NCBI RefSeq assembly: GCF_056712565.1
Contig: NZ_CM160072.1
Length of the DNA: 64,000 nt
Reading direction: 5' to 3' (one strand)
The notes beneath the pieces were generated by a model that saw only the letters and a list, made by a program, of their open reading frames with translations, made no database searches and was not told the DNA's origin. The position numbers and the translations under genes were made by a program. Shown here in pieces: positions 48,088 through 53,995 of the stretch (positions within the stretch are counted from its first letter, which is position 1; each line of letters opens with the position of its first letter).

Positions 48088-48285
48088 CACCTCCCAACGC
48101 GCCGTTATTTCCTGACGGCGCAGTAGACTTCTGCCAAATATCGACTCACGTCACATTTTGTTGATCACGATTTGGTCCCCTAAAATGTGAGACGCTTCGA
48201 TCCTCTTTTTCGCCTGTTCACCTACTATACGCTTGAAGTTGTCCATGATTGTCCATAGACAACTGTAAATGTTCAGGTGCGCGCC

Positions 48286-49032
48286 ATGAAATCATTGAGT
48301 AAGTCGTCACAAATACCGCTCTATCAACAAGCGGTGGAGTGGATAAGAGAAAGTATTTATACCGGGGATCTGGTGGAAGACGATCGCATTCCTTCGGAAT
48401 ACCAGATTATGGATATGCTGGAAGTGAGCCGGGGAACCGTTAAAAAAGCGGTCGCCCAACTGGTAAAAGAAGGCGTGTTGATACAGGTCCAGGGGAAGGG
48501 AACATTTGTCAAAAAAGAGAACGTGGCATATCCGTTAGGTGAAGGATTATTGTCATTCGCGGAATCGCTGGAAAGCCAGAAAATACATTTTACCACTGAA
48601 GTTATTACGTCACGGATTGAACCGGCTAATCGTTATGTGGCAGAGAAATTAAGAATAACGCCCGGTCAGGATATTCTTTACCTTGAGCGTTTACGTTCAA
48701 TTGGTGATGAAAAAGCGATGCTGATAGAGAACCGTATCAATATTGAGCTATGCCCCGGCATCGTGGAAATCGATTTTAATCAACACAATTTATTTCCAAC
48801 AATAGAAAGTTTGTCGCAAAGAAAAATTCGTTACTCGGAAAGTCGCTATGCCGCGCGATTAATTGGTAATGAACGCGGTCATTTTTTAGATATCAGTGAA
48901 GATGCACCCGTTTTGCATCTGGAGCAGTTAGTCTTTTTCTCCCGAGGATTACCCGTTGAGTTTGGCAACGTCTGGTTAAAAGGAAATAAATACTATCTTG
49001 GCACCGTGCTGCAACGGCGGGAAGTGAGTTAA
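48286..49032 (+). CDS. GntR/HutC-family transcriptional regulator (accessory island)
   Basis: About 248 aa; N-terminal winged HTH (YQIMDMLEVSRGTVKKAVAQLVKEGVLIQVQGKGTFV) and C-terminal UTRA-like domain. The ORF track offers a GTG at 48277. Confidence 0.75.
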   Translation: MKSLSKSSQIPLYQQAVEWIRESIYTGDLVEDDRIPSEYQIMDMLEVSRGTVKKAVAQLVKEGVLIQVQGKGTFVKKENVAYPLGEGLLSFAESLESQKIHFTTEVITSRIEPANRYVAEKLRITPGQDILYLERLRSIGDEKAMLIENRINIELCPGIVEIDFNQHNLFPTIESLSQRKIRYSESRYAARLIGNERGHFLDISEDAPVLHLEQLVFFSRGLPVEFGNVWLKGNKYYLGTVLQRREVS

Positions 49033-49056
49033 GTACACTTTTTTAAGAGGAATAAA

Positions 49057-49530
49057 ATGCAAGGCATACAGTTTCAGGAAAATTTTATTCAACGACTTCC
49101 GGCAGGGTTAAGCGTTGAACAGATCATCCATCAGTTAGCGCAACCGTTGGTTACCGCCGAACTGGTGGTCCCTGATTTTGCCGATCATGTACTGGAACGT
49201 GAGGCGACGTACCCAACGGGACTGCCTACCGAACCACCGTGTGTCGCCATTCCGCACACGGACCATAAACATGTCAGGCACAATGCAATTGCCGTCGGTA
49301 TCCTGCCGGAACCGGTAGTGTTTGCCGATATGGGCGGCGACTCTGATCCCGTACCTGTCAGGGTGATTTTTTTGCTCGCCTTAGGCGAAAGTAATAAACA
49401 ATTAAATGCCCTGGGCTGGATTATGGAGATGATTCAGGATACGCCCTTTATGCGCGCCCTGCTTACGATGGAAACAACAGAAATACACACAGCAATCTTA
49501 AACAAAATGAAAGAACGAGGTGAAATATGA
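49057..49530 (+). CDS. PTS EIIA component, fructose/mannitol/galactitol/ascorbate-type (PTS_EIIA_2)
   Basis: 157 aa; size and position immediately before EIIB and EIIC fit a GatA/UlaC-like IIA. Confidence 0.65.
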   Translation: MQGIQFQENFIQRLPAGLSVEQIIHQLAQPLVTAELVVPDFADHVLEREATYPTGLPTEPPCVAIPHTDHKHVRHNAIAVGILPEPVVFADMGGDSDPVPVRVIFLLALGESNKQLNALGWIMEMIQDTPFMRALLTMETTEIHTAILNKMKERGEI

Positions 49531-49808
49531 GTCAAACCATTTTATTTGTCTGCGCCACGGGTATTGCCACATCCACGGCAGTAACAGAAAAAGTCATGGA
49601 ATATTGTAAAGAGCACGGTCTTAACGTCAATTATTCCCAAACCAACGTTGCCTCTTTACCTGGAAATACTGACGGCGTAGCACTGGTAGTCTCAACGACT
49701 AAAGTGCCTTATGAACTCGACGTCCCGGTGGTTAACGGCTTGCCGATTATTACCGGTATTGGCGAAGAGAAAGTACTGGCGCAAATTGTTTCGATCCTTA
49801 AAAAGTAA
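49527..49808 (+). CDS. PTS EIIB component, GatB/UlaB-like
   Basis: 93 aa; N-terminal phospho-cysteine motif ILFVCATGIATS (Cys about position 9); ATGA overlap with the IIA gene. Confidence 0.75.
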   Translation: MSQTILFVCATGIATSTAVTEKVMEYCKEHGLNVNYSQTNVASLPGNTDGVALVVSTTKVPYELDVPVVNGLPIITGIGEEKVLAQIVSILKK

Positions 49809-49884
49809 TTAATAATAATTAATTTCAACCCACTCCATCAGGCGCTAACGCGAGGTGCGCTCTCGCCTGAAAAAGAGGTTTATT

Positions 49885-51243
49885 ATGAACGATATCGCGC
49901 ATACCCTCTATAATATTGTGCAATATATATTGGGATTTGGTCCCACGGTAATGTTGCCGTTGGTGTTATTTATTCTTGCTCTCTTTTTTAAAGTAAAACC
50001 CGCTAAAGCCTTACGTTCGTCATTAACGGTCGGCATTGGTTTTGTCGGTATTTATGCCATTTTCGATATTCTTACCAGCAATGTCGGGCCAGCGGCCCAG
50101 GCGATGGTTGAACGCACCGGAATTAATTTACCGGTGGTGGATTTAGGCTGGCCGCCGCTTTCCGCTATTACATGGGGTTCGCCAATTGCCCCGTTTGTTA
50201 TTCCCCTGACTATTCTGATTAACGTGGCGATGCTGGCGTTAAATAAAACCCGCACCGTTGACGTAGATATGTGGAACTACTGGCATTTTGCCCTTGCCGG
50301 TACGCTGGTTTATTACAGCACCGGCAGCCTGTTCTTTGGTTTGCTGGCAGCGGCGATTGCTGCGGTGGTAGTACTTAAACTCGCCGACTGGTCTGCGCCA
50401 CTGGTACAAAAATACTTTGGCCTGGAAGGGATCTCTTTGCCGACGCTCTCTTCGGTGGTGTTCTTTCCGGTCGGTCTGTTGGTCGACAAAATCATCGACC
50501 ATATCCCCGGCCTCAATCGTATTCATATCGATCCGGAAACCGTACAGAAAAAGTTTGGCATATTCGGCGAACCGATGATGGTTGGTACTATTCTGGGCAT
50601 TCTGCTCGGCGTAATTGCCGGATACGATTTCAAAAAAGTCTTGCTGCTTGGCATCAGCATTGGCGGTGTGATGTTCATCCTGCCACGCATGGTTCGCATT
50701 CTGATGGAAGGTTTATTACCGCTGTCTGAAGCCATTAAAAAGTATCTCAATGCCAAATACCCTGACCGTGACGATCTCTATATCGGCCTGGATATCGCCG
50801 TTGCCGTAGGTAACCCGGCGATTATCTCCACCGCCCTGCTGCTGACGCCAATCTCGGTCTTTATCGCGTTTGTCCTTCCGGGTAATGAAGTCCTGCCGCT
50901 TGGGGACCTTGCCAACCTGGCGGTAATGGCGTCGATGATTGCTTTAGCCAGCCGTGGCAACATTTTCCGCACCGTTCTGGCGGCGATTCCGGTGATTATT
51001 GCCGATCTGTGGATTGCGACTAAAATCGCGCCGTTTATTACCGGAATGGCGAAAGACGTTAATTTCAAATTTGCCGAAGGCTCCAGCGGCCAGGTCTCCA
51101 GTTTCCTTGATGGCGGTAACCCGTTCCGCTTCTGGCTGCTGGAAATCTTCAACGGCAATCTCATCGCCATTGGTCTGGTGCCGGTTATCGCCCTGGTACT
51201 GTATGGTATTTTCCGAATGACGCGGAGCACGGTTTATGCCTGA
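49885..51243 (+). CDS. PTS EIIC permease, galactitol/ascorbate-type
   Basis: About 452-aa polytopic membrane protein; ATG at 49885 preceded by RBS AAGAGG. The ORF track start at 49855 is an extension. Confidence 0.75.
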   Translation: MNDIAHTLYNIVQYILGFGPTVMLPLVLFILALFFKVKPAKALRSSLTVGIGFVGIYAIFDILTSNVGPAAQAMVERTGINLPVVDLGWPPLSAITWGSPIAPFVIPLTILINVAMLALNKTRTVDVDMWNYWHFALAGTLVYYSTGSLFFGLLAAAIAAVVVLKLADWSAPLVQKYFGLEGISLPTLSSVVFFPVGLLVDKIIDHIPGLNRIHIDPETVQKKFGIFGEPMMVGTILGILLGVIAGYDFKKVLLLGISIGGVMFILPRMVRILMEGLLPLSEAIKKYLNAKYPDRDDLYIGLDIAVAVGNPAIISTALLLTPISVFIAFVLPGNEVLPLGDLANLAVMASMIALASRGNIFRTVLAAIPVIIADLWIATKIAPFITGMAKDVNFKFAEGSSGQVSSFLDGGNPFRFWLLEIFNGNLIAIGLVPVIALVLYGIFRMTRSTVYA

Positions 51244-52744
51244 TAACAGCGCAGCTATCGTTATCGATATTGGCACCACCAATTGCAAAGTCACCTGCTT
51301 TTCCTGCCTGGACGCAACGACGTTGGGCGCGCATAAATTCGTGACGGCAAAACAGATCTCCCCACAGGGCAATGTCGATTTCGATATCGACGCCCTCTGG
51401 CAGGAGGTCCGCCAGGCGATAGCGCAACTGAACGCCGCTTCGCCGCTGCCAGTCAGGCGGATCAGCATTGCCAGTTTTGGCGAGTCAGGGGTGTTTCTTG
51501 ACAAACATGGCGAGATTCTGACGCCAATGCTGGCATGGTATGACCGTCGCGGTGAAGAGTATCTGGCAACGCTTAGCGAGGCAGACAGTGCGGCACTTTA
51601 TGACATTTGCGGGTTACCACTGCACAGCAATTACTCTGCCTTCAAAATGCGTTGGTTGCTGGAGCATTATCCGCTGCGCAATCGTCGCGGCCTGCGCTGG
51701 CTACATGCACCGGAAGTGCTGCTCTGGCGGCTGACTGGCGAACAGCGAACGGATATCACCTTAGCCAGCCGTACACTGTGTCTGGACGTGCGCAAAGGCG
51801 AATGGTCAGCGAAAGCGGCGGCGTTGTTACACGTTCCCTGTTCAGCATTTGCGCCATTGTTGCAGCCAGGTGAGCACGCCGGATGGGTCAGTGAGTCGCT
51901 CTGCAAAACGCTTGGGTTCTCGCAATCGGTCAGCGTGACGCTGGCCGGACATGACCATATGGTGGGTGCGCGGGCGTTGCAGATGATGCCGGGCGATATC
52001 CTTAACTCGACGGGCACCACGGAAGGCATTCTGCAACTGGATACACAACCGACGCTGGATGAACAGGCCAAACGTGACAAGCTGGCAAACGGCTGTTACT
52101 CGCTTGCCAACCAGTTCACCCTGTTTGCTTCTCTGCCCGTGGGCGGTTTCGCGCTGGAGTGGCTGCGTAACACGTTCCGGCTAACCGATGAGGAGATCGC
52201 CGTGTCGCTCAATCGTGGGTATGCGGATTACCTGGCGGGGAACTGGTCGCTCGATGACATTCCCGTTTTTATTCCGCATCTTCGCGGTTCGGGTTCGCCC
52301 TATAAAAATCGCCATACCCGAGGATTATTTTATGGGCTTGGCGATACGTTAAATATCGATATGTTAATTGCCAGCGTCTCACTGGGATTAACCATGGAAT
52401 TTGCCAACTGCTTCGCCTGTTTTAATGTGCCCGGCACCAGCGCGTTAAAAGTGATAGGTCCGGCAACCCATAATCCCCTTTGGCTGCAATTAAAGGCGGA
52501 TATTTTACAGCGTCCGGTTGAAGCAATTGCATTTAACGAGGCGGTTTCTGTCGGAGCATTATTAACCGCCGCACCGGATATTCCACCGCCGCAAGTCACC
52601 ATAGCCCAACGTTTGTTACCGAATCGGGCGAGATACCATCAATTACAGCGTTATCAGCACAAATGGAAAAGCTGGTATCAGTTGAAATTACAGCAAGAAG
52701 GCGTGATGCCATTACATCATCGGGAGGAGCACTATGTTGAGTAA
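51236..52744 (+). CDS. FGGY-family carbohydrate kinase
   Basis: 502 aa; N-terminal FGGY motif AIVIDIGTTNCKV; 8-bp overlap with the IIC gene. Confidence 0.75.
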   Translation: MPDNSAAIVIDIGTTNCKVTCFSCLDATTLGAHKFVTAKQISPQGNVDFDIDALWQEVRQAIAQLNAASPLPVRRISIASFGESGVFLDKHGEILTPMLAWYDRRGEEYLATLSEADSAALYDICGLPLHSNYSAFKMRWLLEHYPLRNRRGLRWLHAPEVLLWRLTGEQRTDITLASRTLCLDVRKGEWSAKAAALLHVPCSAFAPLLQPGEHAGWVSESLCKTLGFSQSVSVTLAGHDHMVGARALQMMPGDILNSTGTTEGILQLDTQPTLDEQAKRDKLANGCYSLANQFTLFASLPVGGFALEWLRNTFRLTDEEIAVSLNRGYADYLAGNWSLDDIPVFIPHLRGSGSPYKNRHTRGLFYGLGDTLNIDMLIASVSLGLTMEFANCFACFNVPGTSALKVIGPATHNPLWLQLKADILQRPVEAIAFNEAVSVGALLTAAPDIPPPQVTIAQRLLPNRARYHQLQRYQHKWKSWYQLKLQQEGVMPLHHREEHYVE

Positions 52745-53003
52745 AACCGTGGAAGTCAGAAACAGTACTGGCCTGCATGCACGTCCGGCGGCCTGTCTGG
52801 CGAAAGCCGCCAAAAAATATAGCTGTAAAGTGACGCTGCACTATGAAGGTAATGATATTAATGCCACCAGCATGATGAATATTATGCGCGCCGGAATAAA
52901 AGGCGGAAAAACGGTGGAAATACGCTGCGAAGGTGATGATGAAAACGAGGCAATACAAACTCTCACTACCTTATTTCGCGACCGCTTCGGTGAAGCTGAA
53001 TAA
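52734..53003 (+). CDS. HPr-family phosphocarrier protein paralogue
   Basis: 89 aa; active-site motif GLHARPA (His-15 equivalent) and a Ser-46-like region (ATSMMNIM). Confidence 0.8.
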   Translation: MLSKTVEVRNSTGLHARPAACLAKAAKKYSCKVTLHYEGNDINATSMMNIMRAGIKGGKTVEIRCEGDDENEAIQTLTTLFRDRFGEAE

Positions 53004-53034
53004 TTAACTGATATTAAAAGATGAGGTTTTCAAT

Positions 53035-53886
53035 ATGCCATTAGTTAATGGACGGATACTGCTCGACCGCATTCAGGAAAAACGGGTATTAGCGGGCGCA
53101 TTTAATACCACCAATCTGGAGACAACGATTTCAATTTTAAACGCCATTGAGCGTTCAGGATTACCCAACTTCATTCAGATTGCGCCCACCAATGCACAAC
53201 TGTCGGGATACGATTACATTTATGAAATCGTGAAACGTCACGCTGATAAAATGGATGTTCCGGTCAGTCTTCATCTTGATCACGGGAAAACTCAGGAGGA
53301 TGTTAAACAGGCGGTGCGCGCGGGCTTTACCTCGGTCATGATTGACGGTGCCGCATTCTCTTTTGAAGAGAATATCGCTTTCACCCAGGAAGCTGTCGAT
53401 TTCTGTAAATCCTATGGCGTACCGGTTGAAGCGGAGCTGGGGGCGATTCTCGGCAAAGAAGACGATCACGTCAGCGAAGCCGATTGCAAAACGGAACCGG
53501 AAAAGGTGAAGACCTTTGTCGAACGCACCGGTTGCGACATGCTGGCAGTTTCTATTGGTAACGTTCATGGCCTGGACGATATACCGCGGATCGATATCCC
53601 CCTGCTGAAGCGCATTGCCGAAGTCAGCCCGGTGCCGCTGGTTATTCACGGCGGCTCCGGTATCGCCCCGGAGATATTACGCAGTTTCGTTAATTATCGC
53701 GTCGCTAAAGTGAATATCGCCAGCGATCTGCGCAAAGCGTTTATCACCGCAGTCGGCAAAGCGTATGTGAATAATCACAACGAGGCGAATCTGGCACGGG
53801 TGATGGCATCAGCAAAAAACGCCGTCGAGGAAGATGTGTATAGCAAAATCCTGATGATGAATGAGGGGCATCGGTTGGGTAAGTAA
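53035..53886 (+). CDS. Class II (metal-dependent) ketose-bisphosphate aldolase, GatY/KbaY/FbaA family
   Basis: 283 aa; motifs LHLDHG, VIHGGSG and overall resemblance to tagatose-1,6-bisphosphate aldolases. Confidence 0.8.
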   Translation: MPLVNGRILLDRIQEKRVLAGAFNTTNLETTISILNAIERSGLPNFIQIAPTNAQLSGYDYIYEIVKRHADKMDVPVSLHLDHGKTQEDVKQAVRAGFTSVMIDGAAFSFEENIAFTQEAVDFCKSYGVPVEAELGAILGKEDDHVSEADCKTEPEKVKTFVERTGCDMLAVSIGNVHGLDDIPRIDIPLLKRIAEVSPVPLVIHGGSGIAPEILRSFVNYRVAKVNIASDLRKAFITAVGKAYVNNHNEANLARVMASAKNAVEEDVYSKILMMNEGHRLGK

Positions 53887-53891
53887 ATCTT

Positions 53892-53926
53892 CGCCGGATG
53901 CGGCGTGACGCCTTATCCGGCCTACA
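53892..53926. repeat. REP element at the right edge of the nikR-yhhJ island
   Basis: Sequence gccggatgcggcgtgacgccttatccggcctaca. Confidence 0.7.
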
Positions 53927-53995
53927 AAACCACTAAAATTCAATAAATTGCACCAATGCGTAGACCCTATAAGCTTACGCATCGGGCAACTGTAA

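Follow-up and report, generated by a model that had tools for sequence, protein, structure and literature searches.

Where the Escherichia coli K-12 chromosome carries rhsB between nikR and yhhJ, nearly a third of the complete E. coli genomes hold instead an island of seven genes whose products should import a sugar, phosphorylate it and split it. Which kind of sugar this is, and why a sugar phosphotransferase system should be accompanied by a kinase of the FGGY family, are the questions raised by the locus. The copy analyzed here occupies positions 48088-53995 of a window of 64,000 nucleotides from contig NZ_CM160072.1 (assembly GCF_056712565.1; all coordinates are those of this window), and is 100% identical across the whole island to that of E. 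coli ATCC 11775 (NZ_CP033092.2). Seven intact plus-strand genes occupy the interval from the stop codon of nikR (48087) to that of yhhJ (53996, on the minus strand): a GntR/HutC-family regulator; enzymes IIA, IIB and IIC of a phosphoenolpyruvate-dependent phosphotransferase system (PTS); an FGGY-family kinase; a dedicated HPr; and a class II aldolase (Table 1). RefSeq has these seven genes too, with generic names only. An earlier note on this DNA had described the same seven-gene module, and all of its gene assignments are borne out by profile matches, by RefSeq, and by the Pfam GntR and UTRA domains of the regulator. We propose, at about even probability, that the island is a self-contained, horizontally spread catabolic operon for a ketose-type carbohydrate, most likely a hexulose or a heptulose.

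In the mechanism that we favor, phosphate would pass from phosphoenolpyruvate via the general enzyme I to the HPr of the cassette (His15), then to a histidine of IIA and a cysteine of IIB, and finally to the sugar during its import through IIC; the product of this step would be a ketose monophosphate. The FGGY kinase would then transfer a second phosphate from ATP, most likely to C1, the carbon beside the carbonyl, giving a ketose 1,omega-bisphosphate that the aldolase would cleave into dihydroxyacetone phosphate (DHAP) and an aldose phosphate: glyceraldehyde 3-phosphate if the sugar is a hexulose, or erythrose 4-phosphate if it is a heptulose. The regulator would repress the operon until a pathway intermediate occupies its UTRA domain, and the cyclic AMP receptor protein (CRP) in complex with cyclic AMP probably contributes to activation. 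The order of the steps, the positions phosphorylated and the class of substrate are what we infer, and we judge the central sequence (PTS uptake, second phosphorylation by the FGGY kinase, probably at C1, and cleavage to DHAP and an aldose phosphate) to have an even chance of being right. Uptake by the PTS, a second phosphorylation, aldol cleavage and repression by a HutC-type protein had already been suggested in the earlier note and, as far as sequences can tell, make up the best-supported model after the comparative analysis.

The catalytic motifs of HPr, IIA, IIB, the kinase and the aldolase are complete. In HPr, the sequence GLHARPA places the histidine at position 15, and Ser46 is present. 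The three enzyme II components combine an EIIC-GAT domain with separate IIA (His) and IIB (Cys) proteins, as in the PTS Gat family (TC 4.A.5); the match of IIC to the TIGR00827 profile (E 1e-142; 475.7 bits against a cut-off of 542.2) spans 406 of its 407 positions, and orthologues of IIA, IIB and IIC carry the Pfam domains PF00359, PF02302 and PF03611, respectively. The kinase has both FGGY_N and FGGY_C domains and the fold of the family: its AlphaFold model (predicted local distance difference score, pLDDT, 90.4) superposes on xylulo- and glycerol kinases with template-modeling (TM) scores of 0.8-0.85 in Foldseek. Residues D11-G13-T14-T15, D240 and G260-T261-T262 line up with those of reference FGGY kinases, and in a 15-member alignment all of them are invariant except T14, which is at least 90% conserved. 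The aldolase exceeds the cut-off of the class II family model TIGR00167 (220.7 bits against 215.6), has an equivalog model of its own (NF005943), and possesses the Zn ligands and the catalytic aspartate of class II ketose-bisphosphate aldolases, with D82, H83, E134, H178 and H205 invariant in 72 members of its family. The earlier note had named two grounds on which its model should be given up. One was the lack of catalytic residues in the kinase or the aldolase; kinase D11, D240 and GTT 260-262 and the five aldolase residues are all present and invariant. The other was that the cluster might prove to be a characterized operon of known substrate; a full-text literature search found no characterized member of the cassette and no paper assigning a substrate, only transcriptome mentions and comparative notes.

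The invariant motifs of the kinase (AGHDHM, NSTGTTEG and IPH-x-x-G-x-G-x-P) and the conserved IGP(A/V)..N..W.Q.KA mark it, by sequence, as defining a distinct FGGY subfamily. Throughout this family, GP or GA stands in place of GG in the adenine loop. Neither a sequence search of the PDB nor a Foldseek search with the model found a closer characterized relative than generic glycerol and xylulose kinases. None of the FGGY kinases of K-12 matches it better in pairwise comparison than FucK (26% identity, 106 bits); its AGHDH catalytic loop corresponds in alignment to AGHDT in FucK and ASHDT in RhaB, and a GT-E motif is common to all three. FucK and RhaB are the FGGY enzymes that place a phosphate on C1 of a ketose before a DHAP-forming aldolase acts, and because the catalytic loop matches those of these ketose 1-kinases, C1 is the likely target of the island kinase as well. 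The FucK/FucA and RhaB/RhaD pairs thus share with the island the AGHD loop, the GT-E motif and the pairing of kinase with aldolase; they differ in kinase sequence (22-26% identity), in the family to which the aldolases FucA and RhaD belong, in entry of the sugar by a symporter, and in the use of a single phosphate.

The company kept by such kinases in other genomes argues for a second phosphorylation. One genome per species was scanned, which gave 80 loci whose open reading frames (ORFs) were called and clustered, and the 75 loci with an AGHDH(M/V) kinase were counted. A Gat-type IIC stands next to the kinase in 65 of these species-level loci and an aldolase of the same family in at least 65; counts of the aldolase are lower bounds, since in actinobacterial loci of high GC content ORF calling yielded antisense artefacts (clusters 14, 35, 49 and 51). 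A GntR/HutC regulator is found in 60 of the 75, Zn-dependent medium-chain dehydrogenases in 25, and an HPr gene in 31, which belong to Enterobacterales or Bacillales only; the minimal E. coli-like cassette without a dehydrogenase accounts for 39. As the product of the PTS is already phosphorylated and the kinase almost always comes together with a PTS and a DHAP-type aldolase, a second phosphorylation best explains the presence of the kinase. Four actinobacterial loci without a PTS (L058, L065, L071 and L074) have ABC (ATP-binding cassette) or MFS (major facilitator superfamily) transporters instead and, next to the AGHDHM kinase, encode one or two further FGGY kinases from other subfamilies, which again suggests two phosphorylations; ORF calling gave the aldolase in three of the four, and an antisense ORF in its place in L071. 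Two further loci (L047 and L064) consist only of the AGHDHM kinase, the aldolase and an ABC transporter, an arrangement that would put the kinase upstream of the aldolase.

A sister type of cassette occurs in eight loci from Pantoea, Erwinia, Raoultella and Enterobacter (L038, L045, L046, L048, L075, L079, L082 and L084), in the order IIA-IIB-IIC-kinase-dehydrogenase-regulator-aldolase-HPr, together with a SurE-like phosphatase and usually a second Zn-dependent dehydrogenase. This dehydrogenase-bearing type is presumably a polyol version. Since the additional Zn-dependent dehydrogenases of sister cassettes have a parallel in the gat operon, which serves a polyol, the E. coli type without a dehydrogenase should, by analogy with gat, take up the ketose directly.

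Several known systems help to place the island. In the E. coli gat operon, too, a Gat-family PTS is followed by a Zn aldolase of PF01116, whose products are DHAP and glyceraldehyde 3-phosphate; the operon needs, besides, the GatD dehydrogenase and the GatZ partner, has the DeoR-type regulator GatR, and contains no dedicated kinase or HPr, the second phosphate being supplied by the phosphofructokinase of the host. The island, at 27-44% protein identity, is without dehydrogenase and GatZ, and has the FGGY kinase, the HPr and the HutC regulator. The pathways for fructose (FruBKA) and D-tagatose (Klebsiella tagKTH; Bacillus licheniformis) run from a ketose 1-phosphate made by a PTS, through a 1,6-bisphosphate made by a dedicated kinase, to a class II aldolase. 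The island is a variant of this design of PTS, second kinase and class II aldolase, with an FGGY enzyme where one of the PfkB/ribokinase family, to which the kinases of the fructose and tagatose pathways belong, would be expected, and the positions phosphorylated in the two steps may be reversed relative to those pathways. K-12 YdjH and YdjI offer another parallel, in that a dedicated sugar kinase precedes a PF01116 aldolase (38% identity) whose substrate is an unusual ketose phosphate; the ydj cluster differs in having no PTS gene, in its putative transporters (of MFS type) and two Zn-dependent dehydrogenases, in its monophosphorylated uronate substrate, and in that YdjH is a PfkB-family kinase.

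A bolder form of the proposal is that AGHDHM kinases are the first FGGY enzymes with a physiological sugar-phosphate substrate, namely a ketose phosphate made by a PTS, and that together with a distinct subfamily of Zn aldolases they form an undescribed route for a rare dietary or plant hexulose or heptulose; this we put forward tentatively, at somewhat less than even probability. If true, about 30% of E. coli would possess the route, O157:H7 and B2 strains among them, as would Salmonella enterica subspecies I (according to PMC3604774) and many Firmicutes and Actinobacteria of the gut and mouth.

Several observations weigh against the mechanism that we favor. To our knowledge, no FGGY kinase has been found to accept a sugar phosphate. 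Moreover, all named FGGY models of NCBIfam score the island kinase far below their cut-offs (the best, XylB, at 146 against 380, with GlpK, FucK, RhaB, GntK, LsrK and AraB lower), so that no specificity can be transferred to it from named members of the family. The aldolase raises a further difficulty. In the bisphosphate aldolases acting on fructose 1,6-bisphosphate (FBP) and tagatose 1,6-bisphosphate (TBP), the arginine of a DPR motif and a Ser/Thr-x-Gly loop contact the distal phosphate, and GatY has both. Across the aldolase family of the cassette, the position of this arginine is occupied by R, K, S, G or A and hence is not conserved, and the loop reads APTN; in a comparison with GatY, AgaY and the Thermus FBP aldolase, the E. 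coli protein has an arginine within one residue of the position, where the alignment is itself ambiguous by one residue. With the arginine variable and the loop changed, the distal group of the substrate may not be a phosphate, or may be bound in another way. A sequence search of the PDB gave AgaY (1GVF) as the closest solved relative, and returned only AgaY and FBP aldolases, with no closer characterized relative. In E. coli O157:H7 EDL933, whose genes Z4874-Z4880 are the same island (about 96.6% DNA identity), expression of Z4875-Z4877 and Z4879 is higher in bovine digestive contents than in M9-glucose (PMC6199705), a point in favor of the proposed operon; with a glucose medium as comparator, however, this induction may be no more than catabolite derepression. 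Finally, a distal CRP site that is well preserved in other enterobacteria has more than two mismatches in E. coli and Citrobacter amalonaticus.

The poor conservation of the arginine motif would suit an arrangement that follows the logic of liver aldolase B and triokinase, which we regard as unlikely, though a serious contender: the aldolase would act first, splitting a ketose 1-phosphate made by the PTS into DHAP and a free aldose (glyceraldehyde, erythrose or similar), which the FGGY kinase would then phosphorylate. FGGY kinases normally use unphosphorylated small sugars or polyols, the nearest folds being those of xylulo- and glycerol kinases, and members of PF01116 do cleave monophosphates, as does K-12 YdjI, annotated in RefSeq as octuluronate-1-phosphate aldolase. 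The actinobacterial loci with extra kinases fit this order of events equally well. Against it stand the two loci reduced to kinase, aldolase and ABC transporter, where nothing besides the kinase is nearby to make a substrate for the aldolase, and the catalytic loop of the kinase, which is nearer to those of FucK and RhaB than to that of glycerol kinase.

Parallel entry is improbable. Here the kinase would trap a free intracellular sugar, which had entered unphosphorylated or been freed from a phosphorylated glycoside or by a phosphatase, and the PTS and the kinase would yield one and the same monophosphate for cleavage by the aldolase. The preference of FGGY kinases for free sugars would be satisfied, and phosphatase-like genes do occur in some sister cassettes (SurE-like in eight loci, histidine-phosphatase-like in Gilliamella); the minimal E. 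coli-type cassette, however, has no hydrolase or phosphatase, and nothing would phosphorylate the aldehyde product. In E. coli, Salmonella, Enterococcus and Listeria alike, the start of the kinase gene and the stop codon of the IIC gene overlap, and such strict coupling with a conserved overlap favors sequential action of the PTS and the kinase.

That the island is a redundant system for galactitol (or D-tagatose), as the EDL933 annotation "galactitol-specific PTS" would have it, is very improbable. The best named NCBIfam matches of IIA, IIB and IIC are indeed GatA, GatB and GatC, the aldolase matches the GatY and KbaY models, and Z4875-Z4877 have been treated as a galactitol transporter (PMC6199705). 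All of the Gat equivalog models are nonetheless below cut-off (GatA 57.8 bits against 139, GatB (NF007643) 60.2 against 95, GatY 239 against 383), identity to the K-12 proteins is low (GatA 27%, GatB 37%, about 44% for the translated GatC pseudogene, GatY 36%), and the aldolase has its own equivalog. No dehydrogenase or isomerase was found among the genes between nikR and yhhJ, and hence neither a GatD-type enzyme nor a GatZ partner; the earlier note had argued against galactitol from this very absence, and the existence of sister cassettes with Zn-dependent dehydrogenases makes its argument stronger. The known tagatose routes use kinases of the PfkB type, not FGGY enzymes. A cryptic or decaying island, functionless in E. 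coli, deserves the least credence of all: the degenerate distal CRP site, the reported repression of the Salmonella island by H-NS (PMC3604774) and the frequent replacement of the locus by rhsB or its deletion would fit, yet the seven ORFs are intact with invariant catalytic residues, the full-length island is 95-100% identical in 1635 genomes, and it is transcribed and regulated in EDL933 (PMC6199705).

Table 1. Positions of the genes and sequence elements of the island in the window.
Feature	Position	Strand	Basis or remark
Distal CRP-like site ATCGACTCACGTCACA	48140-48155	+	degenerate in ATCC 11775; left half lost at island junction
Proximal CRP-like half-site TGTGAGACGCTTCGAT	48186-48201	+	AAAnTGTGA kept in 15/15 aligned enterobacterial upstream regions
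Candidate -10 hexamer TACTAT	48223-48228	+	suggested by a TAT(C/T)AT-like block conserved in orthologue alignment
Candidate HutC-type operator: direct repeat TTGTCCATGA / TTGTCCATAG, second copy being left half of palindrome TTGTCCATAGACAA	48239-48262	+	
GntR/HutC-family transcriptional regulator, 248 aa	48286-49032	+	Pfam GntR (E 3.6e-15) and UTRA (E 3.5e-27); WP_001332161.1
PTS enzyme IIA, PTS_EIIA_2 type, AIPH histidine motif	49057-49530	+	GatA and FruA-IIA models below cut-off
PTS enzyme IIB, Gat/Lac-type, N-terminal Cys in VCATGIATS	49527-49808	+	NF007643 GatB match
PTS enzyme IIC, Gat family, 452 aa	49885-51243	+	TIGR00827 EIIC-GAT
FGGY-family carbohydrate kinase, 502 aa, AGHDHM subfamily	51236-52744	+	PF00370 and PF02782
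Dedicated HPr-family phosphocarrier, 89 aa	52734-53003	+	TIGR01003, 103.5 bits vs cut-off 47.9
Class II (Zn) ketose-phosphate aldolase, PF01116, 283 aa	53035-53886	+	NF005943, 555 bits vs cut-off 364
REP element GCCGGATGCGGCGTGACGCCTTATCCGGCCTAC, right island junction	53893-53925	.	sequence reading; K-12 homology restarts inside

The catabolic operon that we propose is an old, widely transferred, mobile unit and not a peculiarity of E. coli. In Enterococcus and Listeria the cassette has the order regulator-aldolase-IIA-IIB-IIC-kinase, without an HPr gene, and its proteins are 76-77% (IIC; 76% in Enterococcus), 68-69% (aldolase) and 35-37% (kinase) identical to those of E. coli. Identities of IIC and aldolase this high across phyla point to a common substrate of the E. 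coli, Enterococcus and Listeria cassettes and to their horizontal spread. Directly downstream of the cassette in Enterococcus raffinosus, E. malodoratus and E. avium (L031-L033) stands a second system, consisting of a PF01116 aldolase, a PRD-type regulator, a Man-family PTS (IIA, IIB, IIC and IID), a Zn-dependent dehydrogenase and a different FGGY kinase, so that the logic of PTS, FGGY kinase and aldolase is repeated there with another PTS family.

Genes STM3779-STM3785 of Salmonella enterica form an orthologous cassette (identity 89% for IIC, 90% for the aldolase, 82% for the regulator and 63% for the kinase), which differs in its order kinase-aldolase-HPr and in its chromosomal site, adjoining uhp. 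The literature describes it as a gain of S. enterica subspecies I and classes it under "unknown carbohydrate utilization" (PMC3604774, published in 2013); a 2024 paper lists it again under "unknown sugars". Evolutionary rates within the cassette are uneven: IIC and aldolase retain about 90% identity between E. coli and Salmonella, and the kinase (63%), IIA (60%) and HPr (47%) diverge much faster. In E. coli the kinase and HPr genes overlap by 11 bp, which might have hinted at a special link between HPr and the kinase; such a link is unlikely, given that Salmonella and most other enterobacterial orthologues have the aldolase between the two and that the Enterococcus and Listeria cassettes have no HPr gene.

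At the nikR/yhhJ site itself at least three states exist in E. coli: cassette, rhsB and empty. The full-length island is present in 1635 of 5426 complete E. coli genomes, in every case on the chromosome and at 95-100% identity, and strains of serotypes O157:H7, O103:H2 and O2:H1 are among them; the K-12-type nikR-rhsB junction occurs in 2111. In K-12 the interval is filled by rhsB-yhhH-yrhC-yhhI (PMC2935791), and the earlier note, which had placed rhsB in this position, was right on the point. The empty state is found in at least one strain, FDAARGOS_1284, in which nikR and yhhJ are separated by 8 bp with nothing in between, and whose NikA, NikD, NikE and YhhJ proteins are identical to their ATCC 11775 counterparts. 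The cassette is found between nikR and yhhJ in Escherichia whittamii and Citrobacter amalonaticus as well, and for that reason it may be ancient there and have been replaced or lost in other lineages. In E. coli ETEC1748 (L089), yhhJ adjoins a frameshifted RHS core gene located after yibF, which suggests that the nik side was lost when rhs elements rearranged with one another.

The boundaries of the island are sharp. Similarity to K-12 breaks off precisely at the stop codon of nikR and starts again at about 53907, within a repetitive extragenic palindromic (REP) element before yhhJ, the very element at which the island had been thought to rejoin the backbone. An Rfam scan of the region gave a weak match to REP-derived naRNA4 (53883-53922), and no riboswitch or leader. 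Inside the island, the overlaps of 4 bp (ATGA) between the IIA and IIB genes and of 8 bp between the IIC and kinase genes are as previously described, to which the 11-bp overlap of kinase and HPr genes has to be added.

The regulator has an N-terminal GntR winged helix and a C-terminal UTRA domain, which together place it in the HutC subfamily, and scores below the cut-off of every named NCBIfam equivalog (HutC itself, 99 bits against 220). Its conserved ATG start (48286) is that used by RefSeq; the listed ORF begins at a GTG at 48277. Ahead of the gene, at 48250-48261, lies the palindrome TGTC(C/T)ATAGACA, preceded by a repeat of the TTGTCCATGA half-site. Of the 26 enterobacterial loci in which the regulator precedes the cassette, 22 have the palindrome at a fixed distance 5' of the regulator gene, Salmonella among them with the T variant (TGTCTATAGACA). 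It is nearly invariant in an alignment of 15 enterobacterial upstream regions; Firmicute cassettes have TTGTACA repeats at the equivalent place. Conservation of this kind makes the palindrome a candidate operator of the HutC-type regulator.

Further upstream, the proximal CRP-like site would be centred near -41.5, provided that TACTAT is the -10 hexamer. A scan for consensus sigma-70 promoters found none upstream of the regulator, as expected if the promoter is activator-dependent, and in a scan for consensus promoters and terminators the counts did not exceed those in shuffled sequence. A second, distal CRP site of the form TGTGA-N6-TCACA lies 46-47 bp 5' of the proximal one in enterobacterial orthologues, with no mismatch in seven and one mismatch in six. 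In both E. coli and C. amalonaticus it is truncated or degenerate exactly at the joint between nikR and the island, and its loss may weaken catabolite control in these lineages.

The operon is intact in nearly one third of complete E. coli genomes, O157:H7 included, though E. coli and Salmonella are the best-studied of bacteria. With its sugar named, pathogenic and commensal lineages would be set apart from K-12 by a further nutrient niche, the "galactitol PTS" annotation would be put right, and the known range of FGGY kinase substrates could be widened. The question lends itself to direct testing, given the conserved operator, the compact layout of seven genes and the rhsB and empty-site alleles that occur in nature.

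The 76-bp spacer between the IIB and IIC genes contains an inverted repeat (CAGGCG...CGCCTG, 49839-49869) immediately upstream of the IIC ribosome-binding site, which might govern how strongly the soluble parts of the PTS are expressed relative to the membrane part. GC content is highest in the kinase gene (0.54), and is 0.44 in the genes for the regulator and IIB.

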